This document shows, in pieces, positions 22,897 to 37,598 of a stretch of 55,497 nucleotides of DNA (positions are counted from its first letter, which is position 1; the number at the start of each line of letters is the position of its first letter). Source of the DNA: a virus. Taxonomy: Duplodnaviria > Caudoviricetes. The stretch lies in IMG/VR virus record IMGVR_UViG_3300023174_000207, positions 1-55,497 of that record; one strand, written 5' to 3'. A program made the translations under genes and the position numbers. The notes under the pieces were generated by a model. The model saw only the letters and a list, made by a program, of their open reading frames with translations. It did not search any database and had not been told where the DNA came from.

Positions 22897-24725
22897 TAAA
22901 TGTCCCACTTCTCAATAACTTTTTTCTTACCGCAATCGTCGTAACTAACGCCCATACCTAGTTCACAAGCAAGAGGCAAAGTGGTAGCCCAAGAAGGTCG
23001 CCAACGCATACATTCGTTTACGTATAGCAATGCTTCTTTTGCTTCTGCTTCAGGCACTACGCACATTACAGCGTCATGCACCGTTAATACTACCCTATAC
23101 TTCTTTGCAATCCGTAGCATCTGCTCGCCAATAATACAACGAGCAAGTGCTTGGCACAGGTTTTCTACTACTTTACCACCATAAATCTTAATTCGTCCAC
23201 GTCGGCTTGCATACGAGTATTGATCGTCCTGATCTTTTTGTAAGTCAGGGTAGTTTAAATACAACCCGCTTGGGAGTAAAAATCCATTTTCCGTAAGGGC
23301 AAGTGCTTGCGGTTGGCACCCAACTTGCGCAGTTTTTTTAGTTCTGAGCGCATCAAGGGAATTATTAGCTTCCTTCCAAAGTCTAGGGATGTAGGGGTAT
23401 GTATCACGATAGACTTGTATAATCCGAGCCGCTTCCGCATCATCAATTTCCACGCCAAAAGTTTTGAGTTGTACCCCAAACTTGGTAGAACCCATGCCAT
23501 ACCCCGCACCGAGGATTGTCGTCTTACCCACGAACCGCTCGCCATCCGAGATTTCGCTCTGCGTCTTTCCGTAAATAGAAGATGCCATGATTTTGTATAC
23601 ATCTTGTTTGTCCTCAAATGCTTTAACTAAATTGTTTTGCCCTGATAGCCATGCAACTGTGCGTGCTTCAATCTGTGATGAGTCAGCATCAATTAAAACA
23701 AACCCCTGTGGTGCCGTGATTGCATTTTTTAACAGTGATTTTCTTGGAAGGTTTTGAAGGTTAAGCTTATCGTCACCACCCCAACGCCCTGTATGGGCGG
23801 CATAATATCTAAGCGGTACTGGCATTCTCCCTCTTTTAGAGATCGCAATAAAACGTTCCGTTCGGGTTTCTTCAAGGGTAGACTTCGTGCCCAAGCGAGC
23901 AGCAACAATCGCCTGAACTCGTTCATCAGGGTGTTCTGCAAGTTCTTTAAAGCCTTCGTCATTCTTAGCAAAAGCGTAGGTTTGTTTACCATTGGCAGGG
24001 CTTTCTTTCATGGGTGGCTCGACCCCAAGGCTAATTAATAATTCAGCTAACTTGGGGTTACTCATTAGCGTATCTTTATCTGCTATGCAAGCATCAAGTA
24101 ACTTCTCCTTACGAGCTTTTACTTGCATTAAATGTTGCTCAAGCAAAGGAGTGTCTAAAGACAATACTGGTTCCGAGAACATTTTAATTGTCAAGCTTAT
24201 TAACTTTAATTCTTTTGTATTGAAGCGTTCTACCAACACTTTAAATAGTTCGTAAGTTAATTTAACGTCGTTCTTGCAATACTCACCATACTGAAGCAAC
24301 TCGATAGGTAAAAAGTCCACACGTTTTTTACCCTTGGCTTCTACAACTTCAGTGCCTTTTGTGCCAAGGTTGTACCTTTGGGCTAGCTTTCCAAGCGCAT
24401 TACCAGCATCCAAGCCATCTGATGCACGAGCCATAGATAAAGTGTCTAGCCACGCAGTCGGCTTTATGTCAAATACCCAAGACAGTATTGCCGAGTCAAA
24501 CATAGCATTGTGGGCTAGAGCAAAGCAGTTCCAATCAAATTGCAAAAGCCATTCTTTTATCTCTGCATGCGTTCCACTCTTCCATACTGGCTCGTCGTCA
24601 TTAACTTGGACGGCGACTCCAATTACCTCGAACCTGTCGTCACGCACATACTCTTCCGTCGTCAACTTTGTAAGGCTAAAGTCTACGGAGTAATATGTTT
24701 CAAAGTCTAGGGTAAGTATGTTCAC
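22896..24725 (-). CDS. Family A DNA polymerase with 3'-5' exonuclease
   Basis: ExoI DFETY, HNAMFD, motif A DSSQIEAR, motif B RFVGKTTILGAGYG, motif C VHDA. Confidence 0.93.
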   Translation of the reverse strand: MNILTLDFETYYSVDFSLTKLTTEEYVRDDRFEVIGVAVQVNDDEPVWKSGTHAEIKEWLLQFDWNCFALAHNAMFDSAILSWVFDIKPTAWLDTLSMARASDGLDAGNALGKLAQRYNLGTKGTEVVEAKGKKRVDFLPIELLQYGEYCKNDVKLTYELFKVLVERFNTKELKLISLTIKMFSEPVLSLDTPLLEQHLMQVKARKEKLLDACIADKDTLMSNPKLAELLISLGVEPPMKESPANGKQTYAFAKNDEGFKELAEHPDERVQAIVAARLGTKSTLEETRTERFIAISKRGRMPVPLRYYAAHTGRWGGDDKLNLQNLPRKSLLKNAITAPQGFVLIDADSSQIEARTVAWLSGQNNLVKAFEDKQDVYKIMASSIYGKTQSEISDGERFVGKTTILGAGYGMGSTKFGVQLKTFGVEIDDAEAARIIQVYRDTYPYIPRLWKEANNSLDALRTKKTAQVGCQPQALALTENGFLLPSGLYLNYPDLQKDQDDQYSYASRRGRIKIYGGKVVENLCQALARCIIGEQMLRIAKKYRVVLTVHDAVMCVVPEAEAKEALLYVNECMRWRPSWATTLPLACELGMGVSYDDCGKKKVIEKWDI

Positions 24726-25057
24726 TTGATTTCCCCGATAAACGGCATTGTCTTATGACCTTCGTCAACCATGGTTTCAAGTATTTGTCCGTAAGCAAAA
24801 GGTCTTGCTATTTCAATAACATAGCGTCTAAATTTAAAGTATATGGCTAATTTTTCTACTACCGTAAAGTGTCTATACATTGCAAGGTCTCTATGCACAG
24901 TGTCTTTTAACGATGGTGGTAAAAAGTAATCCCATTTTCTAGTGTAGATAAACTCATGAGGGTTGCTGTCCATGCGTTCAAGCAAAAGTTTTACTTGGTC
25001 ATGACATAAAAATTTTAGAAGGTGGCTTGGGTGTAGAAAATGGAGAACTGGTGGCAT
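24722..25057 (-). CDS. Hypothetical protein
   Basis: 111-aa ORF filling the gap between the VRR-NUC and polymerase genes. Confidence 0.55.
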   Translation of the reverse strand: MPPVLHFLHPSHLLKFLCHDQVKLLLERMDSNPHEFIYTRKWDYFLPPSLKDTVHRDLAMYRHFTVVEKLAIYFKFRRYVIEIARPFAYGQILETMVDEGHKTMPFIGEIK

Positions 25058-25059
25058 AG

Positions 25060-25365
25060 TTAGCCTCGCCCATCGCTGTCAAAGGACGCAAAATATAATT
25101 TCAAATCGTCAATCAGTTCTTCGTTAACAACAAAGGATTGACCGCCCGCCCGCCGTATGCGTAGCAGTTCTCGCTCTTGCAATGCGGTTAGTTTGCCCTT
25201 GACGGTCTTGCACTCAATAGCAATGAACGCACCCATGTAGCAACAGATAATATCGGGAACACCACTACGACCATAGCCGTGCGTGGCAGGGAAAAAGTAG
25301 TAGACTCCGTAGTCTTTGAGTATTTTGACGACGGCATCCTTTACCTTTGATTCAGGTGTGGGCAT
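25060..25365 (-). CDS. VRR-NUC nuclease / Holliday junction resolvase-like
   Basis: PESKVK...GVPDII...IECK...TALQ motif. Confidence 0.85.
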   Translation of the reverse strand: MPTPESKVKDAVVKILKDYGVYYFFPATHGYGRSGVPDIICCYMGAFIAIECKTVKGKLTALQERELLRIRRAGGQSFVVNEELIDDLKLYFASFDSDGRG

Positions 25366-25399
25366 GGGTCTTGACTTCCTATTGTGTAATTATTGACAC

Positions 25400-25428
25400 A
25401 GTATAATCCTTAATTACATTTTTGCAAA
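25400..25428 (-). promoter_or_regulatory. Possible sigma70-like promoter for the replication operon
   Basis: Minus strand TTGCAA...TATACT, 16-17 bp spacing, AT-rich upstream. Confidence 0.45.
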
Positions 25429-25456
25429 CTATTTTTATTAGGACAAACCCGAAGTA

Positions 25457-25485
25457 GGACATAGTGTCATTGTGACACTTTGTCC
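25457..25485. repeat. 29-bp palindrome, copy 1
   Basis: GGACATAGTGTCA-TTG-TGACACTTTGTCC. Confidence 0.95.
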
Positions 25486-25487
25486 CA

Positions 25488-25514
25488 TAAAAAAAGCCAC
25501 CCGAAGGTGGCTTG
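25488..25514 (-). terminator. Intrinsic terminator ending the early operon
   Basis: AAGCCACC-cgaa-GGTGGCTT (UUCG loop on the minus strand) followed by a U-tract. Confidence 0.8.
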
Positions 25515-25635
25515 GTGTAGGCTAAAGTAGATTCCGCATCCTACTTGCGGTGTCGGGAGATTGTTGGCTTACGCCTTGACTTGCATCACATCTACTAGGC
25601 TAGCAAGAACAACCATCGGAAATACAATGCTTATT

Positions 25636-26541
25636 CTATTCTTTAAGGTAGAAGTAGGTGTTAGGATACTTCTCCGCCATATACTGCTCAGGCTTGAACA
25701 TAACCCCAAACTGACACATCTCGGCAGATTGAAGAAGTTTGAACACACCTAACTTTGTTTGAAAGTCTGTCGGCATATCGGTAAAACTTTTATACCTAGC
25801 AAGGGTTTTGGTAGCATAACTGTAAATAATGTATGCTCCATCAGGACGCAATAACACACCATAACCTTTGTCATTTTTAATACCATTAACTATTTGTTCG
25901 CTCTCGTAGTAATTAGAACAAGCAGTTAAGTATTTCTTTTGGTCTTTGACTGTGGCTGGTATTACAGGTAATGATATTGTGCTTTCACCTTTAAGCCTAG
26001 CAAGATACCCAAGCAGAGCATAGTTCATGCCTTCACCATCATCGTCAAACGACCAACTAACTTCATGGCGATATTCTCCGTGCAAACTATCAGTCCTATC
26101 ACGGATTGTTTTTGCTATCTCGCCAATTAGTTCTTGGTCTGCTCTACCAATAAATAACTTTTTAATCTTGCGTAGAGCAACTTTAATGTTGCTAGTTACG
26201 GTGGTGTTTTCGTCGCCACGCATTTTACTAATACGAAAGCTACTTACTTCGAATACATCTACCCTGCCACCATTCATGCAACGCTTTCCAACAAACAAAG
26301 AACCAAGTTCCTCACCATTTTCAAAGACTTTGACACCCCTGAATATTGTCTTTTGCTCGTATTTGTCGTCGACTGGTGTATGAATTGTTTCTGTGTAACT
26401 GTGATGGGCATGAGCCACAAAGTTAACTAACGGTTTTGCTAGTTGCACCTGTGCTAGGAAGTCCATCAACTTAGGATTTACTTCCACTTCGTTGTATTTA
26501 GTCGGCAGTTTAGACCTGTCGATTTTAATTATGCTTGTCAT
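25636..26541 (-). CDS. Hypothetical early protein
   Basis: 301-aa ORF with AAGGA RBS. Confidence 0.75.
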   Translation of the reverse strand: MTSIIKIDRSKLPTKYNEVEVNPKLMDFLAQVQLAKPLVNFVAHAHHSYTETIHTPVDDKYEQKTIFRGVKVFENGEELGSLFVGKRCMNGGRVDVFEVSSFRISKMRGDENTTVTSNIKVALRKIKKLFIGRADQELIGEIAKTIRDRTDSLHGEYRHEVSWSFDDDGEGMNYALLGYLARLKGESTISLPVIPATVKDQKKYLTACSNYYESEQIVNGIKNDKGYGVLLRPDGAYIIYSYATKTLARYKSFTDMPTDFQTKLGVFKLLQSAEMCQFGVMFKPEQYMAEKYPNTYFYLKE

Positions 26542-26549
26542 ACATTTCC

Positions 26550-27446
26550 TTAAAAGTTAAATTTAGCTAGGATTGAGTCAACCTTTTGCTTAACTGCTTC
26601 ACGAGCAGTGAACGACTCCCGCAAGTCCGATACATCGTAGCCTTTAATACTTGCTTCAAGCTCGGCACGAGCCAACTCTAGTTTGGGGTCTTGCGTGATG
26701 TTCAAGTGTTTCAACATATTAATAAGCTCGGTAGCGTTATCCATTAGTGAGTCACGGAATATGCGTGGCTTCAGCACAGTCCCATTAGTAAGAGGGTCAT
26801 CGCTTGCAACCTCGTCATACTGAAGTCTGTCACTCATGCGGGTAAGGCAGTCATGCAGTCTAGCCCAAGCGTCACGCATTGCGTTGTTGAGACGCTCTTG
26901 GTATGCTGTGTCACAGTTTGCTAGTATTTCCGCCTTAGCGTCTTCATTTATGTCGATACGGAAATCACCCGCCGTCGGCACAGGGAAGAAGTTATACGAG
27001 AATTTGAATCTGTTCTTCAGCGTATGGACTTCGGGATACTCTGTTCTGTCGAACAAATCACCCAACTGAAAAGCCGCAGCAATAACTAGGTTCGGGTAGG
27101 AGTCAATGAATCTGTCGACTAAAGCCATGTAGTTGGTTTCTAGCACACCCAACTGTTCCTTGTATGCCATGAAGTTAGACATAGGCAGTAAGCGTGAGCC
27201 GTTGTCCGACCAAGGTAGAGTCTGTGCCAAGTGCCATGTTCTAGCACCCGATGCGTATTTGAGGATTGACTCCAACACACCTGTGCCTGCCATAAGGTTC
27301 TTGTTCACATTGACTGTGGATACCTTGGTGTTCTTCGCACTATCTACCTCGGCGGATACCTTCTTGTCCAACTTGCGTGCAGTCCAACTGCTGATACTTA
27401 GTTCGACTAGCACGGCTGATGATGCAATACTTATTGAGTTATTCAT
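26550..27446 (-). CDS. DUF3150-like helical protein linked to the MoxR/vWA module
   Basis: LVELSISSWTARKLD, TLPWSDNG and EYPEV...F motifs. Family assignment is from recollection and needs an HMM check. Confidence 0.55.
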   Translation of the reverse strand: MNNSISIASSAVLVELSISSWTARKLDKKVSAEVDSAKNTKVSTVNVNKNLMAGTGVLESILKYASGARTWHLAQTLPWSDNGSRLLPMSNFMAYKEQLGVLETNYMALVDRFIDSYPNLVIAAAFQLGDLFDRTEYPEVHTLKNRFKFSYNFFPVPTAGDFRIDINEDAKAEILANCDTAYQERLNNAMRDAWARLHDCLTRMSDRLQYDEVASDDPLTNGTVLKPRIFRDSLMDNATELINMLKHLNITQDPKLELARAELEASIKGYDVSDLRESFTAREAVKQKVDSILAKFNF

Positions 27447-27466
27447 TTGTATTCCTTTAGGTTATA

Positions 27467-27495
27467 GGACTTAGTGTCACTCTGACACTTTGTCC
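27467..27495. repeat. 29-bp palindrome, copy 2
   Basis: GGACTTAGTGTCA-CTC-TGACACTTTGTCC. Contains the stop codon of 27477..27686. Confidence 0.95.
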
Positions 27496-27686
27496 CTTTG
27501 TTTATAAAAATCACTGCTTTGGTAAAACTTAACAAGGTGCTGTATTGCTTGAGAATAGGATAAGTTGAACCCTAGGGTTTTACCCATCTCATCTTTTACT
27601 TCTGCGAGCATTGTCACAGTCTCAGGATTAAGACTGATGTTTACTTTGCCATCGCTGGCACGACCTTTCGGTATTTTTGTAGTCAT
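27477..27686 (-). CDS. Ribbon-helix-helix-like DNA-binding protein
   Basis: VNISLNPETVTMLAEVK...SYSQAIQHLV strand-helix-helix pattern. AAGGAG RBS. Confidence 0.55.
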   Translation of the reverse strand: MTTKIPKGRASDGKVNISLNPETVTMLAEVKDEMGKTLGFNLSYSQAIQHLVKFYQSSDFYKQRDKVSE

Positions 27687-27695
27687 GATTTCTCC

Positions 27696-28898
27696 TTATT
27701 CAACATGAACGACTTTACCTACTACTGATTCATTAAAATGATTGTTGCCTTTGATGCACCACAATACAGGTGCTTCGATAGACCAATCGCTTGGGTTTTG
27801 TGATGGAATGTAGCCGTCGGTCAAAATGATTAAGCACTCAGGTTTGATGTCATGCTTTTTCATAAACTTGGGCAAACACGCAGGTTCAGTCCCACCGCCA
27901 CCCGCAGGCTTAGTGGTTTCAACTAGACCCGCAAGTTCATTGTCACGATAGGTTTCCCTTGACGCAACATGGGTGTCCCAATACAGCAGGTCAATCTGTT
28001 CAGGATTTACCTCGTCGCAGATAGACTTCACCTCTGACAAGAACTGACTAAGTTCTTCCCCACCGATAGAGCCTGATGTGTCCACACCGATAGCGATACC
28101 GCCTACCTTTTCAGAATAAGACGATGGCATGATTAAGTCGGCGGCGATATACCGCTTGTGCAATCGTTTCCATGTAGTCTTGTCTTTGCCGTGCATGGCA
28201 GTCTTGACAAAATCACGCAATGCTTCTCGCCAATTTACTTTAGGCACAAGCAAGTCACCCATCTCACGAGATACATTACCGCCCATCTTGCCCACTAGCA
28301 TAGAGCCTTGTCGTAGTGCTGACTCGATTTCCTTGGCAACTTCTTCCTTGTCCTGCTCAGACATATCTTGGGCTTCGTCCCAATCGTGTCCGTCAAGGGA
28401 TTCTTTACCACCACCGCCACCACCACGACCACCTTGTTGTTCTTCCTCAAGGATTTTGAATACTTGCCCTGAGTCCATACCACGAAAGCGTTCATCAATA
28501 AGACCTAGCACATTGCCTTGTGCGTCGGTTGGGAAATCAGTCATATCATTCTCAGGGTCATAGTCCCTGATTTGCAGATTGATAACATAGTCGCAAGCCA
28601 TGTTAGCCAAACGACTGTTCTTCTTATTCAACGGTTGCCACACTACGAGGTGACGATAAGCCTTGTGCATATTCTCATGCAAGATAAGGAAGGCTAGTTG
28701 CTTGTCGTTCAAACTGTCGACAAACTTTCGGTCATACACCACATCAACACCATTGGTTTGAGCCGTGCCACTAGAAGTCTTGTCTCGGACTTCGACCTTG
28801 CCAATCATGAACAAACCTGCAAACAAACAAAAGTTTGGGTGTTTCATAAGTTGCACATGGATTCGTTCAATCCGTTGCTCTGCGGTTAGTTGAGCCAT
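27696..28898 (-). CDS. DUF2201-type metallopeptidase fused to vWA domain
   Basis: HENMH zincin motif, NMACDYVIN, MIDAS VDTSGS, GGGGT and ILTDG. Confidence 0.88.
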   Translation of the reverse strand: MAQLTAEQRIERIHVQLMKHPNFCLFAGLFMIGKVEVRDKTSSGTAQTNGVDVVYDRKFVDSLNDKQLAFLILHENMHKAYRHLVVWQPLNKKNSRLANMACDYVINLQIRDYDPENDMTDFPTDAQGNVLGLIDERFRGMDSGQVFKILEEEQQGGRGGGGGGKESLDGHDWDEAQDMSEQDKEEVAKEIESALRQGSMLVGKMGGNVSREMGDLLVPKVNWREALRDFVKTAMHGKDKTTWKRLHKRYIAADLIMPSSYSEKVGGIAIGVDTSGSIGGEELSQFLSEVKSICDEVNPEQIDLLYWDTHVASRETYRDNELAGLVETTKPAGGGGTEPACLPKFMKKHDIKPECLIILTDGYIPSQNPSDWSIEAPVLWCIKGNNHFNESVVGKVVHVE

Positions 28899-29161
28899 TG
28901 CATTTTCTCCTCGTTAGGTTTAACTTCTACATCTACTTCTTCGCCTTCTCTATCTACATAGTCGCTTACTGCGTTAGCAAATAGTCGAATAGCCTCATGC
29001 GGTGGCACATTGGCATGCCCTAGCATGGTGTTAATAAGCATGGTAAATAACACAGACATGACCATACCTAATTCCATTTCTTCTTTCTCAAAGTAAGAGC
29101 CAAGTGTTTCGGCTATGCTTTCCAACTGCTCTTGCCTTGCTACTACTTCTTCGTCGTTCAT
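28886..29161 (-). CDS. Acidic hypothetical protein
   Basis: 91 aa, Glu-rich, AAAGGA RBS. Sits between the AAA+ and vWA genes. Confidence 0.6.
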   Translation of the reverse strand: MNDEEVVARQEQLESIAETLGSYFEKEEMELGMVMSVLFTMLINTMLGHANVPPHEAIRLFANAVSDYVDREGEEVDVEVKPNEEKMQWLN

Positions 29162-29182
29162 AGTTTTCCTTTAGTTAGGTTG

Positions 29183-29211
29183 GGACAAAGTGTCACGATG
29201 ACACTCTGTCT
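29183..29211. repeat. 29-bp palindrome, copy 3
   Basis: GGACAAAGTGTCA-CGA-TGACACTCTGTCT. Confidence 0.95.
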
Positions 29212-29212
29212 T

Positions 29213-30307
29213 TTAGAACAAGTATTGATTCTCACGCATCCAATCGCAGAACGACTGGCTTGTTAAGAACATCTTCTTCTTGTCGTCGTTCTTCATACCT
29301 GTCAAGCAGAACACAGACTGCAACTCTTTCGGAGTCCGCTTGAGATACTCAAAGAACTTATTGATTGTTTCTCTATCGACACGCTGAACTGCCGAGAACG
29401 CTAGTAAACAAAGGGCGGCGGGACTTGTGGGAACTTGAGCCGTTTTGGGGTTCTTGATAATCTCTTCCCATGATGGCAACGAATCCGCAACATCAACAAA
29501 AGACATCAACTCACGAGCAGAATACGCACCGATAGTGCCTTCCAATGCACAAGTAATTGCATTAGTGGTTGAAGAGCCACGAACCTTAAGAATATTTGAT
29601 GCTCTCTCAAGGGAACGAGGGCTAACGAAAGCCTTCTGTGCTTCTTTTGGTTGAAAGATATGCTTGTTGCCTGCCTGTGATGGGTCTAGGTATGACGCTA
29701 GAACTTGAGGATTGTTCTTAACCCATGCTAGAACTTCAGCAACAATATCGTTCTTGACTGCCCACTCACCCCATGAGTTCGGTTCGATAGAGCCATCGGG
29801 GTTAAAGCCTGCTGATGGTTTCTTGATATGAACGACACTCACACGATTGCGTGTATGGGAACGCATTACATCATTGACACCGTCGGTGCTGTAATTACCA
29901 GCAGTAACGACTATCGTTTGCTTGTGCAATGGGATACCCATAACTTGCCGTGGTTCGTTAAGCATAGGGTGCAACATATTCTGCACACCCAATGGTGCTT
30001 TGGTTATCTCGTCAATGAACACGACGAGTGGTTCGTCCAAATGAAAACCCCACATCTCGTTAGGATAAATGCGAGTAGTCTTGGTGCTATGGTCGGGGAT
30101 TGGCACACCCAACTCGCCCAACTCAATGTTCGGTCCGTCGATATAAACACCACGATACCCTGTGCGTGCAACAATGTTCTTGAACATCGAGGTCTTGCCC
30201 ACACCCATCTCACCCATCAGGTGAATAGTTCCGTTCCCACCCAACGCAACAATCATATCTTCTGCTTCTTTGAGCGTTGCGGATTTACTTAGTAATACTT
30301 CAGCCAT
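29213..30307 (-). CDS. MoxR-like AAA+ ATPase
   Basis: Walker A GEMGVGKT, Walker B VVFIDE, TAGN, SPRS sensor motif. Adjacent to a vWA gene. Confidence 0.88.
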   Translation of the reverse strand: MAEVLLSKSATLKEAEDMIVALGGNGTIHLMGEMGVGKTSMFKNIVARTGYRGVYIDGPNIELGELGVPIPDHSTKTTRIYPNEMWGFHLDEPLVVFIDEITKAPLGVQNMLHPMLNEPRQVMGIPLHKQTIVVTAGNYSTDGVNDVMRSHTRNRVSVVHIKKPSAGFNPDGSIEPNSWGEWAVKNDIVAEVLAWVKNNPQVLASYLDPSQAGNKHIFQPKEAQKAFVSPRSLERASNILKVRGSSTTNAITCALEGTIGAYSARELMSFVDVADSLPSWEEIIKNPKTAQVPTSPAALCLLAFSAVQRVDRETINKFFEYLKRTPKELQSVFCLTGMKNDDKKKMFLTSQSFCDWMRENQYLF

Positions 30308-30338
30308 TTTTGATTTCCTTAAGGTTATATTTAATTAA

Positions 30339-30367
30339 AGACATTGTGTCATCGTGACACTTTGTCC
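30339..30367. repeat. 29-bp palindrome, copy 4
   Basis: AGACATTGTGTCA-TCG-TGACACTTTGTCC. Confidence 0.93.
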
Positions 30368-31329
30368 TACTTTGCATACATATACTTGTCATTTCCGTCA
30401 TGAAACGGAGTGCCAATTACTACTTCTTCTTCTTTGAATAGCGTGTCCCTGAAGTGATACTTCAAGATTTCTTCAAAGTATTTCTTAAACGCTTGTGGCG
30501 AACAAGAAACAAAATTGTCCCGATACGAATACTTACCCGCATTGTGAGCAATTAGATACATCAGGTTGTAAGCCAACTCCAAATCCCCAGATTCGTTAAA
30601 CTTATCCAATGCTTGAATAACAACTGCTCGATTGGACCTGTCGTTAGGTTTTCTGTTCCAATGGTAAGCAGGTAGCAAATCATCATCTTGGAGTTTGAAA
30701 TACTCCTTGACTTTGGTTATCTCCCTTTTCTCACCATCGTATACATTTGAATCTAGCCTACTGTCCATGCTCAAAGCGGTGCAAGCGTAGTCGATAAACT
30801 TCTTGTATCGCTTACGCAAGGCATTCATCTCTTTACGATTAAGCCTATACACAGTCTCAGGTGTTACATCTTTGGGCATGAAGTCCCCATCGACAGAACG
30901 AAAAACTGTTTTGCCCATGTCGCTAAGAACAAAACTTTGGTTCTGTTTGTTGATGAGATACCACTTGCCACGCATTGACCCAATCTTAGCGACACCGAAC
31001 AAAGCATAGGTAAGCATATTCATTACTGAAACACCACGATACCTTCGACAATCAAACACTACATCGCCATTTGGGTAGAAGGTAAGGTAGTCGTAGTCAT
31101 ACATCTGACAAACATAAACATCAACGAACTCACCCAATGGGTTATCAGGTGTTTCAATGCTTGCCCGCTTATGCACAATCTCCATCCACTTGTGCCGTCG
31201 GTTATCGCCAAGTGGTCGTAGGTTGTCGCTACCCCTGATTGGGGTAGTCTTTTCGTAGCGTTCCTTTGCTTGAGCATAGTTTGCTATCGGCTTAATACGG
31301 GCGGAGTTATACCCCGAATGAATACGCAT
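30367..31329 (-). CDS. Hypothetical early protein
   Basis: 320-aa ORF with TAATG coupling. Confidence 0.75.
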   Translation of the reverse strand: MRIHSGYNSARIKPIANYAQAKERYEKTTPIRGSDNLRPLGDNRRHKWMEIVHKRASIETPDNPLGEFVDVYVCQMYDYDYLTFYPNGDVVFDCRRYRGVSVMNMLTYALFGVAKIGSMRGKWYLINKQNQSFVLSDMGKTVFRSVDGDFMPKDVTPETVYRLNRKEMNALRKRYKKFIDYACTALSMDSRLDSNVYDGEKREITKVKEYFKLQDDDLLPAYHWNRKPNDRSNRAVVIQALDKFNESGDLELAYNLMYLIAHNAGKYSYRDNFVSCSPQAFKKYFEEILKYHFRDTLFKEEEVVIGTPFHDGNDKYMYAK

Positions 31330-32159
31330 TACTTACCTGCCTTTCCCTCGTAGTATTCAACGATGATGGTCAAGCGTTTGATTTCCTTACGCAAAGACTC
31401 AATCTGTGCCAAGGATTCGTCATACGCAACATTACGCACCTCTCGTCTTGTCTTTGCGTCTACCTCACGCTGAAGTCTGCGAGCCTCAGTCTGCCACTCA
31501 GTCACCCGATTTTCCAAGAACAAAATGTAATTCTCTCTGTCTTGGTCAATAGGCATTGGCTTTAACTGCTCTGCAATTTCCAATGACCTTGGCATAGCAA
31601 ACGATGTTACTTTTTCTGTCGGCTTGAACTCGAATGGGTTCTTCTTGACTTTTGGTTTTTGCAAGCAACCTTTAGCCAAGGCTTCGTCGTATGGGTAATA
31701 CTTCATATACCCTGTGCTGACTGACTTTTTCTTGCCAATCAAACCACGAGATACAAGACTGCCCAACTTCATGTTGAGAACTTTGAGTGCAACATCTTTA
31801 CCGACATAGGTGTGGATAGTTGTAGCGGTTCTGCAACCTGTCTTCAAAGCACTAAGCACCCGCTCTTCCAAACTTTTTACATGCTTGGGGTATGCTCTAG
31901 CACCGCTTGATACATTGCTACCTTTGCGGATTTTCCACATGGCTGTGTGAATCGTGTTCAACCTTTTGCCTGTCGTTTGGGAAATGTCCAAGGCTTTGTT
32001 AATGCCGTTGTCCATGCACCACTTCGTTGCTTCCATGACTGACAGAGTGCTGAAGTCGGGTAGCCGTGGGGCATTTACATCTACTTCAGGCTTTTGGTTA
32101 TCCATGCTAGCCATCTGTGCTTTTACTTCTGCTAATACTGCGTTTACTTCAGGGTTCAT
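31329..32159 (-). CDS. Hypothetical early protein (possible HTH/wHTH + coiled coil)
   Basis: 276 aa, AAGGAG RBS, basic centre, C-terminal heptad repeats. Confidence 0.65.
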   Translation of the reverse strand: MNPEVNAVLAEVKAQMASMDNQKPEVDVNAPRLPDFSTLSVMEATKWCMDNGINKALDISQTTGKRLNTIHTAMWKIRKGSNVSSGARAYPKHVKSLEERVLSALKTGCRTATTIHTYVGKDVALKVLNMKLGSLVSRGLIGKKKSVSTGYMKYYPYDEALAKGCLQKPKVKKNPFEFKPTEKVTSFAMPRSLEIAEQLKPMPIDQDRENYILFLENRVTEWQTEARRLQREVDAKTRREVRNVAYDESLAQIESLRKEIKRLTIIVEYYEGKAGK

Positions 32160-32180
32160 AACATACTCCTTTTAGTTAAG

Positions 32181-32209
32181 GGACTTAGTGTCACAATGAC
32201 ACTTTGTCT
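32181..32209. repeat. 29-bp palindrome, copy 5
   Basis: GGACTTAGTGTCA-CAA-TGACACTTTGTCT. Confidence 0.95.
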
Positions 32210-32475
32210 TACTTCGTTAGCCATATAAAAAGAAAAATAGGCAGGGCTATGGCACACCCACCCATGAAAAGGGTCATAAAAAACTCAGAGAAGAACTCAA
32301 GCGTATGGCGTAGGTCTGACTTGTGTCTTTCTATTGCACACGCATAGGTTGCATCTTTGAACGCTTCAGATACGCTACGGCTAGTCCTGCCTGCCACATG
32401 ATGTGGGTCGGCAGTTCCCCGATAGGTTCGCATATCTACACCTTCAACAAACATCTTTGCTTTCTTTGGTTTCAT
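32209..32475 (-). CDS. Small protein with C-terminal transmembrane segment
   Basis: AAGGAG RBS and a hydrophobic C-terminus. Confidence 0.6.
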   Translation of the reverse strand: MKPKKAKMFVEGVDMRTYRGTADPHHVAGRTSRSVSEAFKDATYACAIERHKSDLRHTLEFFSEFFMTLFMGGCAIALPIFLFIWLTK

Positions 32476-32644
32476 TCTTTAACTCCTTCAAGTCGTTAGT
32501 CATAACATCAAGCCTGTGTATTACATTGAAAATAATCAAATTGGCATGGTTTCTAGTAACACCACGCATACGAGTCATAGCCAATGCCTTAACCATTGCT
32601 TTAGCATTGGATATCATTTCGTCCAGTTTCTCCTCGTCGGTCAT
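32444..32644 (-). CDS. Hypothetical protein
   Basis: GGGAG RBS and ATGA overlap. Confidence 0.55.
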   Translation of the reverse strand: MTDEEKLDEMISNAKAMVKALAMTRMRGVTRNHANLIIFNVIHRLDVMTNDLKELKNETKESKDVC

Positions 32645-32829
32645 TTTTCTCCCTGTAATGAGGTTAGTTTGGCTTTCATAATTGCGAGTTCGGCTTCTCC
32701 TTGCACATATTGAGCAAGGTCTTCGGCAGTCCTGATACTGTCTTTGTTTAACTCAAGAACAACTTGGAACTCCCTGATTTGGCTCAACAACTCGCTAATG
32801 CGTTGCCCTTTGTAGTATTCCGTCATCAT
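32641..32829 (-). CDS. Hypothetical protein
   Basis: ATG at 32829 overlaps the previous stop codon. Confidence 0.55.
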   Translation of the reverse strand: MMTEYYKGQRISELLSQIREFQVVLELNKDSIRTAEDLAQYVQGEAELAIMKAKLTSLQGEK

Positions 32830-33095
32830 GCCCTCACATAAAAGGAACACGCAATACTGTTGGGTATCGACTCGAATACCTCTTTACTTACTTCGATTTG
32901 CTCACCCGCAGTAACGGCAACTTCGCCACCGAAAAAGTAATAGGTGTCATAGTCTATCTTATCGGGTTTACCCCACCAATCTTTAACTATGTGGTTATGC
33001 ACCTCACTTGGGTCTTGGTCGGTAGCAAAGCGGATAGAGGTGGTTGCCTCGTATTCCCCGATGGTCATGTTTACTGTTGCTAAGTAGTATTTCAT
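32826..33095 (-). CDS. Hypothetical protein
   Basis: GGAGG RBS and ATGA overlap. Confidence 0.6.
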   Translation of the reverse strand: MKYYLATVNMTIGEYEATTSIRFATDQDPSEVHNHIVKDWWGKPDKIDYDTYYFFGGEVAVTAGEQIEVSKEVFESIPNSIACSFYVRA

Positions 33096-33226
33096 TCGCC
33101 CTCCAACATTGCTTTAGCCTCGGCTAGATACCCAAACCCTTCTTCGACAAGTAGCAAATCTTCTTCCTCTATGCCCTTGTGGATTAGCGTGTAGGCTACA
33201 TGTAGTTTGGCAATTATTTCGTGCAT
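33092..33226 (-). CDS. Small acidic hypothetical protein
   Basis: AAGGAG RBS before ATG at 33226 (MHEIIAKL...). Confidence 0.55.
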   Translation of the reverse strand: MHEIIAKLHVAYTLIHKGIEEEDLLLVEEGFGYLAEAKAMLEGE

Positions 33227-33244
33227 TTCTTTCTCCTTAGGTTG

Positions 33245-33273
33245 GGACTTAGTGTCACTCTGACACTTTGTCG
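33245..33273. repeat. 29-bp palindrome, copy 6
   Basis: GGACTTAGTGTCA-CTC-TGACACTTTGTCG. Contains the stop codon of 33255..33506. Confidence 0.95.
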
Positions 33274-33506
33274 TTGGTTGTAAAGCGGTGGGAAAAGCCC
33301 TCAAGAAATCCTGCTTGAAAGGCTTCTTTAATTTCTGAGTAAATTACTCGGCTATGCGGTGCTACCTTATTTGCATACCCATGTCCCTTCTCGATAGCGA
33401 TATCTTCAATAGTGAATTCAGTCCTGAATTCTTCGGTAGCCCACTCAGGTGGGTCGGTATCACAATCAAAGTCATCTTCAAATCTTGGTTCTCTTGGTTC
33501 GCTCAT
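33255..33506 (-). CDS. Acidic hypothetical protein
   Basis: GAGGA RBS before ATG at 33506. Ends DKVSE inside the palindrome. Confidence 0.55.
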   Translation of the reverse strand: MSEPREPRFEDDFDCDTDPPEWATEEFRTEFTIEDIAIEKGHGYANKVAPHSRVIYSEIKEAFQAGFLEGFSHRFTTNDKVSE

Positions 33507-33742
33507 ATCGTCCTCTTGGGGTTTAGTTGCTTGAGCATCGCTAGGTCTGTGATACAAACATAGTTTGATTTGTTCAAAGGTGCAATAGTGAAATGCCGTT
33601 GCTTGGCAATCTCTTCCCCGCAGTCATGGCAAGTCATACGCAAACCATGCGTCTTGAGGTGCTCGGCTCGGTCTTCATCTACCTGTTTGCCGTAGCAGTT
33701 GGTGCATAGATAGCGGTGTGATTGGTGCGTCGCTTTGGTCAT
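33503..33742 (-). CDS. Small zinc-finger protein
   Basis: CTNC...CHDC and a GGGAG RBS. Confidence 0.65.
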   Translation of the reverse strand: MTKATHQSHRYLCTNCYGKQVDEDRAEHLKTHGLRMTCHDCGEEIAKQRHFTIAPLNKSNYVCITDLAMLKQLNPKRTI

Positions 33743-33760
33743 CGTATCTCCCTGTTTGTG

Positions 33761-33789
33761 GGACATAGTGTCAATGTGCCACTTTGTCC
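33761..33789. repeat. 29-bp palindrome, copy 7
   Basis: GGACATAGTGTCA-ATG-TGCCACTTTGTCC. Confidence 0.93.
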
Positions 33790-33834
33790 TGTTAGTAAAA
33801 AATAAGCAAAAAATGGGCGAATTCCCACTCTATT

Positions 33835-33875
33835 AGTATACCACACCTAGTGGGAAAAGTCAAGGATATGTCCTA
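33835..33875 (-). promoter_or_regulatory. Strong sigma70-like early promoter A
   Basis: TTGACT-17 bp-TATACT with extended -10 TG. Shares 26 bp with 34757-34782. Confidence 0.8.
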
Positions 33876-34018
33876 CTTTGAAGTCCGCCGTTTGCACACG
33901 GCGAGCAGGTATGTTGAGTGGCGGTCTTGCTAAATTTTATTGCGTCGCTTAGTCTTTTTTAGGGGGTTGGTGTGTCGCTAGGGGGGAACTGGTGGTTTTT
34001 GCAAAGCAAAAACAAAAT

Positions 34019-34047
34019 GGACAAAGTGTCAATTTGACACTTTGTCC
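34019..34047. repeat. 29-bp palindrome, copy 8 (perfect arms)
   Basis: GGACAAAGTGTCA-ATT-TGACACTTTGTCC. Confidence 0.95.
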
Positions 34048-34057
34048 CAAGGCACTA

Positions 34058-34645
34058 CTAAGCGATATTATGCTCAAGCACCATGTAGTTCAATACTTCC
34101 ATGTCCAAGGTATCAACCCAATCTTTGACCCGCTTACGCAATGCGACCAATTCGGACTTTGCGTCCTTGCCTAGTTCCTTTTGGCGGTGGGCAAGTTCCT
34201 TGCTGATTTTCTTAGCGGACTCTAACTTAGCAAGAGTGGGTTGAGCCAATAGACTTGCCATCTCCGCTTGTAATTGGTCATCGGACTTCTCAGCAAAAAC
34301 CGCCCTTGCCTTTGCCCTTTGTTCTGCTTTACGCTTTGCCTCAGGGTCATCAGATTCAGGGATAGTGATAGCGGACTCATGGCAAACCCGTTTCCACTTG
34401 GACTTGATAGCGTCCTCGGTCTTACCCGCATTTTGCAAGGTTTCCCAAAACAAAACACGACCCATTGAATACCTAGCCCATGAAGGCTTTGTGCCTAACA
34501 CCTCTGCGATTGTTGCAATAGCCTCGGCGATAGCGTCCTCGCCTTCGTCAAGAGCAAGGGTTGCGGATACTAACTGAGCATTTTCATGCTCGTCAAATTG
34601 CGATAACATCTCGGCGGTTTTTACTACTGTGGTTGAGTTTTTCAT
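34058..34645 (-). CDS. Early helical protein, paralog of 35564..36226
   Basis: GGAG RBS before ATG at 34645. Motifs IKSKWKR, KAEQRAKA and LQAEMASL. Confidence 0.75.
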   Translation of the reverse strand: MKNSTTVVKTAEMLSQFDEHENAQLVSATLALDEGEDAIAEAIATIAEVLGTKPSWARYSMGRVLFWETLQNAGKTEDAIKSKWKRVCHESAITIPESDDPEAKRKAEQRAKARAVFAEKSDDQLQAEMASLLAQPTLAKLESAKKISKELAHRQKELGKDAKSELVALRKRVKDWVDTLDMEVLNYMVLEHNIA

Positions 34646-34675
34646 AACAATCTCCATGGAGTGGGTTTAGGTATG

Positions 34676-34704
34676 GGACATAGTGTCACTCCGCCACTTT
34701 GTCC
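34676..34704. repeat. 29-bp palindrome, copy 9
   Basis: GGACATAGTGTCA-CTC-CGCCACTTTGTCC. Confidence 0.9.
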
Positions 34705-34741
34705 CGCATGGGGTGGAAACCATTTCCGACCTCACAAATAC

Positions 34742-34782
34742 AGTTTAACACAGGTGGTGGGAAAAGTCAAGGATATGTCCTA
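34742..34782 (-). promoter_or_regulatory. Strong sigma70-like early promoter B
   Basis: TTGACT-17 bp-TAAACT with extended -10 TG and an AT-rich upstream region. Confidence 0.75.
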
Positions 34783-34789
34783 TTTATTT

Positions 34790-35095
34790 TTGTAATGTTC
34801 TGAAAATAGGGGGTAATGTTCTACAATGTTCTGTTGGGTTGGAACAATAGAAAACCTTATGGGTATTGGGTTTGCGGTTAGTTTAGATATAATGTTCTAT
34901 TGTTCTATATAGATTAATATAAGAACGGCGGGGGTTTTTAGCACTATGCGTAGGGGGTCTTCGTCCCCTGCCAAAATAATTTTCCAAGGTTATTTTTTTT
35001 GGAACATTTGGAACATTTGGAACATTGCGTGTAAGTCCTTGATTACAAAGCGTTTCTATTGTTCCATGCAACGGAACATTACAAGAACAATATCA
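34790..35095. repeat. Cluster of ~12 AWTGTTC/GAACAWT heptamers; candidate replication origin
   Basis: AATGTTC at 34794, 34815, 34825 and 34891. ATTGTTC at 34899 and 35058. GGAACATT x3 at 35001-35026 and again at 35073. GAACAAT at 34842 and 35085. Non-coding with an AT-rich core. Confidence 0.6.
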
Positions 35096-35164
35096 GGGTT
35101 TCCCCTAGTTTACAAAGTGGGCAAAATCAATTATGCTCTGGTTCAGAGCATAACAAAAACAAGG

Positions 35165-35193
35165 GGACAAAGTGTCACGCTGACACAATGTCC
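35165..35193. repeat. 29-bp palindrome, copy 10
   Basis: GGACAAAGTGTCA-CGC-TGACACAATGTCC. Confidence 0.93.
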
Positions 35194-35239
35194 TGCGTGG
35201 CTTGTGCGTCGCTTACAACCAGTTCCCTAATTTTTTGCG

Positions 35240-35263
35240 AAAAAAACCCAGCCGAAGCTGGGT
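35240..35263 (-). terminator. Intrinsic terminator
   Basis: ACCCAGC-cgaa-GCTGGGT (UUCG loop on the minus strand) plus a U-tract. Confidence 0.8.
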
Positions 35264-35285
35264 CAAATTACTGCCATTGGACTAA

Positions 35286-35525
35286 CTAAATATATTTTGC
35301 AACATCAATAAAAATGCAACGGGTTTTTTTGGAATACCGGATCTCAAGATTAGTAAACCCAGCTTGAGCTAATTCTTTAAACTGGCTACGGTTTACATAT
35401 CTTCCGTCCAGCCCGTGAAAATAATCCACAATCCTAAAATCTTTATTGGCTTTCAGATCATCATACAATGCCGATTGTGATTTGTAATCCCTGCCGTATG
35501 CTGGGATAAGTATTAGTGATTTCAT
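35286..35525 (-). CDS. Hypothetical early protein
   Basis: 79 aa with a PAYGRDYKS motif. Confidence 0.65.
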   Translation of the reverse strand: MKSLILIPAYGRDYKSQSALYDDLKANKDFRIVDYFHGLDGRYVNRSQFKELAQAGFTNLEIRYSKKTRCIFIDVAKYI

Positions 35526-35563
35526 TTTTAATCGAGCTGGGTTTCCCCAGCCCGTCCTGTTAG

Positions 35564-36226
35564 TTAGATTTCAGAATCTTCCGGCTGGTATTGCTCGAGG
35601 ATAGCTAAAGAATCCTGAAGCATATCTTCATCAAAGCAATTTTTAGCTGCCTTGATTACCTCAGCCTGAAGATCTTTAATCCCAGCCATGCGTTCTTTTA
35701 AAGCGTCCTGATTTTTAGCTTTAATTGCTTTAGCTAATTTTCCGGCTTTAGCTAAATTTTCCGGAGTAGCTTTAGCCGTGAGCATAGCTATCTCAGCTTG
35801 TAAATCAGCGATTGGCTTAGCCTTTAATTCGTCCATAGCCAACTGGGCTTTCGTCCGCTGCTCAGCCTTTTTTTGGCTTCCGATCTCAGGACTAGCTGGT
35901 TTAGTTAAAGCATAATTCTCTTCCAGCCGACGGGTAAACCGCTTCCACATAGACTTGATACTGTCCAGCTCGAATAGCTCAGCATGGCTATTAGCCGTTA
36001 AGCCTTTTTTCTTGGCATAAGCTAATTTCATTACTTCAGACCCAGCTACCCATAAATGGTAATCAGCTTGTTTAATAATTTTGCCGTCCACTTCGATTGC
36101 AATTTCAACTGCACGGGCAAAATCTTCCACAGCCTGATCTGCATCTACTTCACTAACAGCAAACAAATCACCAACATCACTAAACAACTGCACTTGCGTA
36201 TCACTTAATTGGAATTGAATATCCAT
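35564..36226 (-). CDS. Early helical protein, paralog of 34058..34645
   Basis: Motifs IKSMWKR, KAEQRTKA and LQAEIAML. First gene of the leftward arm. Confidence 0.75.
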   Translation of the reverse strand: MDIQFQLSDTQVQLFSDVGDLFAVSEVDADQAVEDFARAVEIAIEVDGKIIKQADYHLWVAGSEVMKLAYAKKKGLTANSHAELFELDSIKSMWKRFTRRLEENYALTKPASPEIGSQKKAEQRTKAQLAMDELKAKPIADLQAEIAMLTAKATPENLAKAGKLAKAIKAKNQDALKERMAGIKDLQAEVIKAAKNCFDEDMLQDSLAILEQYQPEDSEI

Positions 36227-36282
36227 TTTCCGTTATCCCTTTTTAGGTTAAACACCGGTGAACCATTCACCAGCTAAGATAT

Positions 36283-36325
36283 ATCTTAACACAAAAATAA
36301 AATAAATACAGTAAATATTTTATAA
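36283..36325 (-). promoter_or_regulatory. Possible extended -10 promoter
   Basis: Minus strand TGTGT-TAAGAT with very AT-rich upstream sequence. The -35 is weak. Confidence 0.45.
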
Positions 36326-36343
36326 AATCCCACCAGCTTGTCC

Positions 36344-36382
36344 GGCTAGTGCGCCGCCTTACTTGGCTAGTGCGCCGCCTTA
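36344..36382. repeat. Tandem 18-bp direct repeat (period 21)
   Basis: GGCTAGTGCGCCGCCTTA at 36344 and 36365. Confidence 0.85.
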
Positions 36383-37007
36383 ATTACGGGTTTTTTATGT
36401 CCGGTTATTGCCCTGGCAGTTTCGGCAGCCGACTCCCAGGGAGCTGGGCCCAAGCAAAAAACCTCAGGCCGGACCGGTTATTTTTAGCTGGGATCGCGGC
36501 CCCACCCTACCCCAACCCCCCAAATAGCAAAAAATGGAACCAGCCAACCCATATACACAATGATCTGCACAGTACATACCTCGTTTTTAAAAATTCACCA
36601 CTTATGACGCAATATCATCCTATAGCAGCGCAATAGATAATATCGCTAGCCGGCTAGCGAAAATGGCTTAAGCGCACAAAGTTACCTCATCCACGAAGCT
36701 CAAGGACCATTCGATCATCCTATGCTTGCTCAATACATAAGATTAAGCGTATACAGACGTATTTTTAATTAAAATGTCAGGCCCCGGGGGGTATACTTTT
36801 TCCTAGGGAAAAGTCAGGCTGCGTTATAGCAAAAGGACCCCCCACCATTTTTCCCGGGACTCCTACCCCAGGGGGGTATATAATTTTTATGTCCTTCACG
36901 TGGACACGGGGGGCAGTGGATTTTTATAACCAATACTTGTTCTATTGTTGCCATTGCCTCCCACCTTTGTTACACTTCGCACATATAAACCTCACAAACA
37001 AGGTTGT

Positions 37008-37598
37008 ATGCAAATACCTGTTGAGCCAAACCTCGACAAACCCGTACCAATACAAGCCCAGCCCCAAACAGGCCGGACGTACGAAGATCGGCTAAAAGTT
37101 GCCGGCAATACTGCTATGCTCCTTAATGAACTTGGAGCAGAGGATGACTTGTCCCCAGAAGAAAAAGAACAAGCTAGGCAAATGATTGAGAAGTTAAAGC
37201 CTGCGGATGCTAAACCAAGCCTACCTAGCAAGGAAGAAACGGACAGTACAAAGAACTACAACGTTGCTTTGGTTATCGGCACGTACCTAAATGAGTACGA
37301 GAAACAGATTGTTGCAGACAAAGTCCAGGTTAGAACAGTAGTTGTCAACCGTTTGATGGAAATAAGTAAGAACGAAGACGACAAAATCGCCCTAAAAGCT
37401 CTGGAATTGCTAGGAAAAGCCTCAGATTTGTTCACAGAACGCTCAGAAATCACCATTACCCACCAAACTAGCGATGAATTAAAGGCTGCAATCAAAGAAC
37501 GCATCAAATTATTGATGCAAACCCAGCAAATTGACAACAAAACCAAGGCCCAGAAGCAGTTAGCGGTCATTGATGCAGAGGCAAAAGAGGTCAAATGA
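37008..37598 (+). CDS. Probable terminase small subunit
   Basis: Directly upstream of TerL with ATGA overlap. Helical motif ALKALELLGK...LFTER. Confidence 0.65.
   Translation: MQIPVEPNLDKPVPIQAQPQTGRTYEDRLKVAGNTAMLLNELGAEDDLSPEEKEQARQMIEKLKPADAKPSLPSKEETDSTKNYNVALVIGTYLNEYEKQIVADKVQVRTVVVNRLMEISKNEDDKIALKALELLGKASDLFTERSEITITHQTSDELKAAIKERIKLLMQTQQIDNKTKAQKQLAVIDAEAKEVK

Follow-up and report, generated by a model that had tools for sequence, protein, structure and literature searches.

Why should a phage that carries common 4-bp palindromes along most of its genome carry almost none of them in one contiguous stretch of that genome? The question is raised by IMGVR_UViG_3300023174_000207, a single linear contig of 55,497 bp that was analyzed here in its entirety (the window), and which IMG/VR classifies as a virus without end repeats and CheckV estimates to be 88% complete. 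A first-pass annotation of this DNA had described eight palindromes as missing between ~26,730 and ~35,250. We find that the motif depletion is confined to one contiguous segment, that this local purge is real and highly significant, and that there is good support for restriction as its cause. The purged segment is probably the first-entering, early-expressed leading part of the phage genome, exposed before protection acts.

Between 26,730 and 35,250, ACGT, AGCT, CCGG, CGCG, GATC, GCGC, GGCC, and GTAC were each counted zero times, exactly as annotated, and the palindromes said to remain do so (CATG, 51 copies; TGCA, 41; TCGA, 23; CTAG, 29; AATT, 27). The whole record holds 140 ACGT, 268 AGCT, 83 CCGG, 129 GATC, 108 GCGC, 59 GGCC, 146 GTAC, and 1 CGCG. 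The site-free gaps extend from 24,321 to 36,757 for ACGT, from 24,372 to 36,572 for GTAC, from 22,353 to 35,337 for CCGG, from 24,395 to 36,351 for GCGC, from 22,293 to 36,447 for GGCC, and from 23,841 to 35,340 for GATC, whose longer absence had been noticed correctly. The gap for AGCT is shorter (26,725 to 35,256), and the four AGCT sites found between 24,385 and 35,256 (at 26,238–26,725) lie in or beside the most divergent gene of the zone. As the left limits of the six other gaps fall at 22,293–24,395 and their right limits at 35,337–36,757, we set the zone at ~24,400–35,250 (10.85 kb), so that the interval first described is truly purged and the zone extends ~2.3 kb further on the left. 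The zone and its left surroundings are as follows.

24,400–35,250, no strand: core purge zone, with no ACGT, CCGG, GATC, GCGC, GGCC, GTAC, or CGCG, four AGCT, and CCAG/CTGG depleted about sixfold.
22,896–24,725, minus strand: family A DNA polymerase gene (polA); the purge stops ~330 bp inside its 5′ end.
20,000–24,399, no strand: left shoulder, with the same motifs at 8–16 sites per kb versus ~20–30 in the late genes.

The depletion had been said to fade gradually leftward and to stop abruptly on the right. The right border is indeed abrupt, the site density jumping at once to 23–31 per kb. The left border is a step, at which ACGT, GTAC, AGCT, and GCGC all return within 75 bp (24,321–24,395), followed by the shoulder, where sites stand at about half density back to ~20 kb.

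Codon usage does not explain the purge. We shuffled the synonymous codons of the zone's coding sequence (9,150 nt) 500 times and drew it anew another 500 times according to the codon usage found in the other genes, and none of these 1,000 sequences reached the observed count of zero (four for AGCT), the means being 11–46 per motif and the lowest minimum 2, for CCGG. When all strand-symmetric 4-mers were scanned against 300 shuffles, the outliers were the eight palindromes (z of −4.6 to −7.4) and the non-palindromic CCAG/CTGG (7 observed versus 44.7 expected, z of −7.0), a ninth motif that the first reading had missed; AATT and CCTCC showed weaker dips. Codon usage in the zone is slightly different, with C-ending codons commoner, and the GC content is equal inside and outside.

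Elsewhere in the record the motifs behave in three ways. Across the late genes (29.6 kb), the observed-to-expected ratio is 0.87–1.04 for ACGT, AGCT, GATC, GCGC, and GTAC, versus 0.59 for GGCC, 0.50 for TCGA, and 0.78 for CCGG, and CGCG is absent where 52 copies are expected. Across the replication genes (14.4–20.7 kb), CGCG is absent too, the ratio is 0.18 for GGCC, 0.35 for TCGA, and 0.43 for CCGG, and it reaches 1.02–1.21 for ACGT, AGCT, and GATC, with weak dips for GCGC (0.64) and GTAC (0.75). Hence, CGCG is purged everywhere, two or three motifs are partly depleted everywhere, and the rest are purged in the zone only, which means that the local purge first proposed for eight palindromes holds for seven of them. 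About 900 sites of these seven motifs fall outside the zone, and TCGA and CATG are relatively enriched within it.

The genes around the zone are arranged in two divergent arms, which meet at a non-coding gap of ~0.7 kb at 36.2–36.9 kb.

36.9–55.5 kb, then 1–14.2 kb, plus strand: arm encoding the large terminase, the portal, an ejection protein, and a polyvalent protein of 2,937 residues.
36.2 kb down to 14.4 kb, minus strand: arm encoding a number of small unannotated proteins, a MoxR-type ATPase, a DUF2201 metallopeptidase/VWA protein, a VRR-NUC nuclease, DNA polymerase A, a PD-(D/E)XK exonuclease, an SNF2 helicase, and a DUF927 primase-helicase.
29,213–30,307, minus strand: gene of the MoxR-type AAA+ ATPase (phrog_1297).
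27,696–28,898, minus strand: gene of the DUF2201 metallopeptidase-like and VWA-like protein (the VWA protein), with its nearest cultured homologues in N4-like Schitoviridae.

To see whether the purge recurs, as the annotation had asked, relatives were collected by searching viral contigs for the VWA protein, which gave 66 loci at 32–89% identity. The order is conserved across them, with portal, terL, and terS (large and small terminase genes) leading away on one side and, on the other, the early arm running to the ATPase, the VWA protein, and polA. For a census we took the 40 loci whose contigs reach 9 kb or more beyond the VWA gene on its upstream side, which include a few duplicates (e.g., L029/L064 and L032/L033), and counted a 4-bp palindrome as purged if it occurred at no more than 0.2 per kb in the core and at 1.2 per kb or more over the first 2.5 kb upstream. 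At least one motif is purged at the same place in 32 of the 40 loci and at least three in 23, with the terS/terL flank unpurged. No motif is purged in the remaining 8, and 7 of these have a GC content of 0.50–0.53. The pattern recurs in independent assemblies.

What changes between relatives is the set of motifs. The closest ones, L001–L004, lack ACGT, CCGG, GCGC, GGCC, GTAC, and CGCG and retain GATC at 1.1–2.0 per kb; L005 retains AGCT, L010 and L014 lack AGCT and retain GATC, and L028 and L037 retain ACGT. In L008, L020, L023, and L052, the loss of CGCG is confined to the zone, and the motif is frequent upstream. CCAG is depleted in many relatives, and in the zones of one sublineage it is replaced by the non-palindromic CCGC/GCGG, which is strongly depleted relative to the expectation from the flanks (4 versus 42 in L028, 2 versus 20 in L040, and 5 versus 34 in L041). 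A meta-profile over 18 and 13 loci, in which the purged set of each locus was measured outside the core that defined it, gave a relative density of ~1 on the terS side, 0.30 at 0.5–1 kb into the early arm, and no more than 0.05 by 2 kb; it then stays at 0.03–0.13 up to polA and recovers slowly within polA and beyond (0.3–0.6, against a reference that partly takes in DNA beyond polA + 3 kb).

Nucleotide identity to L001–L004 is ~83–92% on each side of both borders, without a step; it drops to ~70% at 25.9–26.5 kb, and 31.3–31.9 kb has no nucleotide match. With ~10–15% divergence from these relatives and the sites still missing, the sites must have been kept out throughout the divergence. The differing motif sets at one conserved position point to host-specific restriction acting on this segment alone. 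For host assignment, genome contigs were scanned twice, with the ATPase and with an alignment of 10 ATPase sequences, and no relative was found.

The zone also has an anatomy of its own, listed here from right to left.

35,286–36,226, minus strand: unpurged unit of two genes (220 and 79 residues), between the terS-proximal gap and the zone, with 16 AGCT in 903 nt.
35,245–35,264, minus strand: terminator-like hairpin with a T-run, which closes this unit and marks the abrupt right border.
35,197–35,228, minus strand: non-coding block of 32 nt at the zone start, invariant except for one position in 5 close relatives.
25,447–35,192, no strand: array of 10 intergenic palindromes of ~30 bp, of the type GGGACAAAGTGTCA-N3-TGACACTTTGTCC, coextensive with the zone.
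34,790–35,075, no strand: iteron-like repeats (TGTTCC/ATTGTTC units, from direct reading) within the 0.6-kb non-coding leader of the zone.
34,742–34,785, minus strand: first of two copies of a 44-nt element, ahead of the first zone gene, with a sigma-70-like TTGACT-17-TAAACT and a TG (consensus match only).
33,835–33,878, minus strand: copy 2 of the element upstream of the second gene block, with TTGACT-17-TATACT and a TG (consensus match only).
25,494–25,513, minus strand: strong terminator-like hairpin, which closes the early block just ahead of the last palindrome; the purge extends ~1 kb beyond it.

Leftward from the 32-nt block follow the first palindrome, a conserved hairpin, and the TGTTCC repeats. 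With up to 6 mismatches, the block was found in 14 of the 66 related loci, each time at the zone start and also in relatives whose VWA protein is 66–71% identical; its role might be in packaging, at a genome end, or in regulation. The layout as a whole (a terminator at the border, two promoter-like repeats placed ~0.5 and ~1.4 kb inward of it, and a terminator at 25,494–25,513) would fit a leading region.

The overlap of the zone with a palindrome array, already noted in the annotation, proved to be a coincidence in extent: the ten copies (at 25,447, 27,457, 29,173, 30,329, 32,171, 33,235, 33,751, 34,009, 34,666, and 35,155) span the zone, and the family was found in no other part of the record. 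The majority lie 10–25 nt upstream of a ribosome-binding site, ahead of early genes, with folding energies of −10.8 to −20.4 kcal/mol. In several of them, identical asymmetric AA/AA mismatches or a broken half-site recur, and these features agree better with a dimeric DNA-binding protein than with a plain RNA hairpin. In relatives the arms are lineage-specific and co-vary on both sides, reading GTGTCA..TGACAC in the record phage, L001, L005, L006, and L020, GTTACA..TGTAAC in L032 and L041, and GCGACA..TGTCGC in L028 and L037. Read from their sequences, these features suggest that the palindromes are sites of a co-evolving dimeric DNA-binding protein and not pure RNA hairpins. In L041 the first palindrome (2,997) stands upstream of the homologue of the 220-residue protein, and the site profile in 500-bp steps falls at ~3,000 (by the stricter last-site measure the border is at 4,314). 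The border of L037 (2,678) precedes the first palindrome (3,084) by ~0.4 kb. The purge therefore broadly tracks the palindrome array, not one particular gene.

The genes of the zone and of its surroundings contain one direct comparison of purged with unpurged coding sequence.

34,058–34,657, minus strand: first zone gene (199 residues), without a known family and with no site of the eight motifs.
35,564–36,226, minus strand: gene of the unpurged 220-residue paralogue, with 16 AGCT, 5 GATC, and 4 CCGG.
26,550–27,446, minus strand: gene of a conserved protein of 298 residues, with a weak DUF3150 match.
25,060–25,365, minus strand: gene of a VRR-NUC/Hjc-like nuclease (101 residues) within the zone, with a weak or partial VRR-NUC match.
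21,850–22,545, in the minus arm: gene of the PD-(D/E)XK exonuclease.

The 199-residue protein is a paralogue of the 220-residue protein (37% identity over 87 residues, E of 2e-9), and the two genes are a natural inside/outside pair for the purge; some relatives, such as L041, carry a single copy, which lies within the zone. A zone protein of 87 residues has a weak or partial zinc ribbon match. The proteins of 199, 220, 276, 320, 301, 100, 91, and 89 residues matched nothing in Pfam, PHROGs, NCBIfam, or the protein atlas, nor did most of the other small open reading frames in the same libraries.

If sites are tolerated over most of the genome, what protects them there? The first-pass annotation had seen no methyltransferase, and this stands: a six-frame search of the 88%-complete record gave no match to PF00145, PF01555, PF02086, or PF02384 (C5, N6/N4, D12, and N6_Mtase methylases), nor to PF00303 (thymidylate-synthase-like) or PF01702 (TGT/DpdA-like), a completeness that leaves room for the gene of such an enzyme in the absent part. 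An N6_N4 methylase was not found in 5 relatives that are 96–100% complete either. The annotation had also called the protection unexplained, and in this respect the late arm does offer a candidate.

5,342–14,155, plus strand: gene of the polyvalent virion protein of 2,937 residues, with HATPase_c_3 (residues 723–827), ART-PolyVal (an ADP-ribosyltransferase domain; 1481–1581), LPD39 (1951–2106), and a DarB-like/PLxRFG C-terminal third.

This gene adjoins that of the ejection protein, and ~1,400 residues of its product carry no annotation. By tblastn, the C-terminal third matches proteins of ~60-kb phages named "DarB-like antirestriction" or PLxRFG. PMC5512222 describes polyvalent proteins as having multiple domains and as being used by viruses and plasmids in conflicts with their hosts. 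On its domains and its neighbor, the 2,937-residue protein is a candidate for a co-injected counter-defense protein; proteins of this kind reportedly enter together with the DNA. We also considered it as an N4-type virion RNA polymerase and rejected this, since no RNA polymerase family was matched in PHROGs or Pfam and the tblastn matches are PLxRFG/DarB-like.

The order of entry depends on where the genome ends. Position 1 of the record falls within an open reading frame (1–687), positions 55,430–55,497 end shortly 3′ of a start codon, and the two cannot be joined in frame; as the record starts inside a reading frame, a piece must be absent between its two ends, and this piece is a portion of the tail-fiber region. 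The gap between the two arms is, we infer, a candidate packaging or end region.

36,227–36,944, no strand: divergent gap between the arms, with a 21-bp tandem repeat at 36,344–36,385 (GGCTAGTGCGCCGCCTTA...), G/C runs, and the sole CGCG of the record (36,495).
36,945–37,598: presumed small terminase gene, without a match in the family search; the 21-bp repeat lies upstream of it.

In phages whose terminase lies beside a fixed end, packaging usually begins from that end and ejection from the opposite one, as in lambda; by this rule, the leading DNA would be that immediately to the left of the terS-proximal gap. We analyzed ends in the assembled contigs of 4 of the 24 public runs that hold the sequence, and found no pile-up of molecule ends in these contigs. 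Among the 66 loci, 10 of 27 contig starts cluster loosely at 4.5–5.9 kb upstream of the VWA gene; we rejected these as genome ends and take them for assembly breaks, since the region has the repeated promoter element and the palindromes. Contig depth is flat between the zone and its outside (7.7–12.3 versus 9.0–9.5 in X1 and 6.6–7.4 versus 5.6–9.7 in X2, one figure per contig), which makes a collapsed long repeat unlikely; a T5-type long terminal repeat was rejected on this ground, the depth being not doubled in X1 and X2, which is weak evidence at one figure per contig.

Taken together, these results are probably best explained as follows. The DNA end next to ~35.25 kb would go into the cell first, and host RNA polymerase would use the repeated sigma-70-like promoters, which lie ~0.5 and ~1.4 kb inward of that end, to transcribe the palindrome-marked early genes leftward. 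The other ~80% of the genome would be exposed later, through slow or transcription-coupled entry as in T7 or through two-step entry as in T5, and the zone alone would be naked in the cytoplasm until an early-made or co-injected function neutralizes the host nucleases. A Type II site would be lethal within the zone and tolerated elsewhere, and such lethality would let selection remove the sites from the zone. The enzymes of each host would set which motifs are purged, so that the motif sets of relatives would differ because their host enzymes differ, and enzymes beyond the reach of the protector would force genome-wide avoidance, here of CGCG and partly of GGCC and CCGG. The annotation had likewise proposed that only this segment is exposed before a protective function acts; the same explanation has been given for T5 and the murciaviruses in the account of PMC12455610, and for the present phage the polarity of entry, its delay, the fixed ends, and the existence and identity of a protector are inferred. 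A more specific version, which we consider possible and rather unlikely, is that entry has two stages, the first delimited and timed by the palindromes and the 32-nt block, and that the zone or the 2,937-residue protein supplies a general Type II neutralizer, covering at least seven 4-bp specificities over ~80% of the genome.

Several observations weigh against a leading segment. A linear record that is ~88% complete and whose first base falls within a reading frame does not fix the genome ends, and the sole relative flagged with terminal repeats (G002) has an overlap of 127 bp, which is typical of an assembly k-mer. A public contig of 4,761 bp (32,124–36,884) bridges the right border, as would be expected for concatemers or terminal repeats, and gives the reading no support either. 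The 35.25–36.9 kb interval is site-rich in the record phage and in L001–L006, a misfit for an end within the terS-proximal gap (36.2–36.9 kb); this unpurged tip fits a leading end only with the end at ~35.25 kb, beside the conserved block, which we state as a prediction. A promoter scan returned 19 sites versus 24.1 in shuffles, which leaves the promoters as consensus matches only, and no known anti-restriction family was recognized in any zone protein in Pfam, PHROGs, NCBIfam, or the protein atlas. Finally, TCGA shows the reverse pattern, with an observed-to-expected ratio of 0.35–0.54 outside the zone and near expectation inside (26 versus 23–33), and it is purged in the zone of L052; a faster sequence turnover of the zone is one possibility.

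Other explanations start from different premises. All the DNA might enter together, with only the early operon having to stay uncut for transcription and cuts elsewhere being repaired or tolerated through phage recombination or end protection. The zone would indeed equal the early transcription block, and it ends near a terminator and polA; the phage encodes the PD-(D/E)XK exonuclease (21,850–22,545) and the VRR-NUC nuclease, and the BASEL paper contains the suggestion that ligation contributes to T5-type resistance (PMC8594841). However, repair of so many double-strand breaks is implausible with ~900 outside sites of seven motifs, no ligase was found among the scanned proteins (part of the open reading frames), and the purge passes the terminator by ~1 kb into the next unit and then fades, which looks kinetic and not unit-bound; we regard this explanation as improbable. 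A protective base modification covering the virion DNA everywhere except the zone would also leave avoidance to the zone only. It could draw on the HTVC023P-type pelagiphages, relatives by terminase, for which thymidine-hypermodification gene pairs near PolA are reported (PMC9599517), and the motifs depleted genome-wide (CGCG, GGCC, and CCGG) are all-G/C, beyond the reach of a T modification. The enzyme searches given above speak against it, as does GCGC, which stands at expectation in the late genes. We know of no mechanism that spares one 11-kb block from modification, having made no literature search for one, and we give this idea little credence.

The zone could, in turn, have been imported from a phage with another restriction history and have kept the composition of its donor. 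Its somewhat different codon usage (C-ending codons), its relative enrichment in TCGA and CATG, and the high variability of some of its genes, including the 31.3–31.9 kb interval unmatched in L001–L004, would agree with such a mosaic. Against it stand the synteny across the lineage, the equal GC content, and the identity to close relatives unbroken over both borders, together with motif sets that differ even among relatives having the same module and a border that shifts with the palindrome array. As the continuous identity and the differing sets argue for excluding codon usage and foreign import alike, we consider a mosaic origin very improbable. Composition, codon usage, or chance as the sole source of the pattern has next to no probability, being refuted by the 1,000 codon-aware shuffles, the z-scores of each motif, and the recurrence in independent assemblies. 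Exposure of a leading segment before protection remains our preferred reading.

The principle behind this reading is known, and the example is extreme and new for such phages. According to PMC12455610, an EcoRI site gained in the first-transfer region renders T5 sensitive, and Type I motifs restrict the T7-like murciaviruses only if they lie in the first-injected region, where the early anti-defense genes of these phages also sit; in the same account, headful phages are not expected to show a leading-region effect, and the leading regions of conjugative plasmids are depleted in restriction-modification targets and concentrate anti-defense genes. In PMC8594841, the restriction resistance of T5 is ascribed to elusive functions of its early-injected region. 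A plasmid leading region differs from the present case in belonging to another kind of element, with single-stranded transfer.

One close parallel is first-step transfer in T5, whose first-transfer segment, like the zone, is about 10 kb long and repeat-rich. In T5 restriction counts only in the first-entering segment, and the site-bearing rest is protected by an elusive early function; the record would follow the same rule. Unlike the zone, the T5 segment is a ~10-kb terminal repeat, as opposed to a flat depth in the record, which shows no homology to T5 genes and has at least nine 4-bp motifs purged versus one 6-bp site. With the T7-like Autographiviridae (murciaviruses; T7 gene 0.3/Ocr), the record would share the rule that the location of a motif in the leading region decides sensitivity. 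T7 promoters lie ~0.5 kb from the genome end, and the promoter-like sites of the record lie ~0.5 kb from its presumed end. The murciaviruses differ in having one Type I motif versus many Type II-like 4-mers here, and neither a phage RNA polymerase nor an Ocr-like family was detected in the record, which has two divergent arms versus a single direction of transcription. Genome-wide avoidance of restriction sites, as treated by Rusinov et al. 2018 (PMC6286503), is matched by CGCG with its single site, unlike the other eight motifs, which are avoided locally only. What sets the record apart from the T5 and T7-like precedents is its other lineage, the complete purge of nine 4-bp words, an array of palindromes coextensive with the zone, and the lack of a long repeat and of a phage RNA polymerase.

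The earlier cases (T5 and the murciaviruses) involved one or a few long motifs, cultured phages, and genetics. Here the same signature emerges from sequence alone in an uncultured freshwater lineage, over more than 60 contigs, for nine 4-bp motifs and with sharp borders, and it predicts the first-entering end, fixed ends, the restriction enzymes of each host, and a broad anti-Type II function. The candidates for that function make a short list, a handful of unannotated early proteins or the polyvalent virion protein, and a second independent system beside T5 could help to identify protective functions. If the two-stage version is true, a purge map would be a sequence-only read-out of injection polarity and of the host restriction repertoire in uncultured phages.

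As to affiliation, a megablast of the zone and of 37–47 kb against deposited phages found no close relatives, with one match of 47 nt to a pelagiphage. The terminase is closest to those of DSL-LC04 and HTVC023P-type phages, and DSL-LC04, the best terminase match, has a different early region. The early arm resembles N4-like Schitoviridae: among cultured phages, the homologues nearest to the VWA protein come from records whose listed hosts are typical for N4-like phages, and the one record checked belongs to a member of the Schitoviridae, the Vibrio phage NC_055784.1, which shares with the present record the order of ATPase, VWA/metallopeptidase, and, further on, DNA polymerase (4,359–7,101 and 9,825–12,446). 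N4 has hairpin promoters ahead of its early genes, and the record likewise has hairpin-type elements ahead of early genes. From the gene order in common with an N4-like phage, the ATPase–VWA pair may serve replication and not defense. In NC_055784.1 the VWA/metallopeptidase gene is labeled "HNH endonuclease", as is phrog_1314, which looks like a propagated misnomer.

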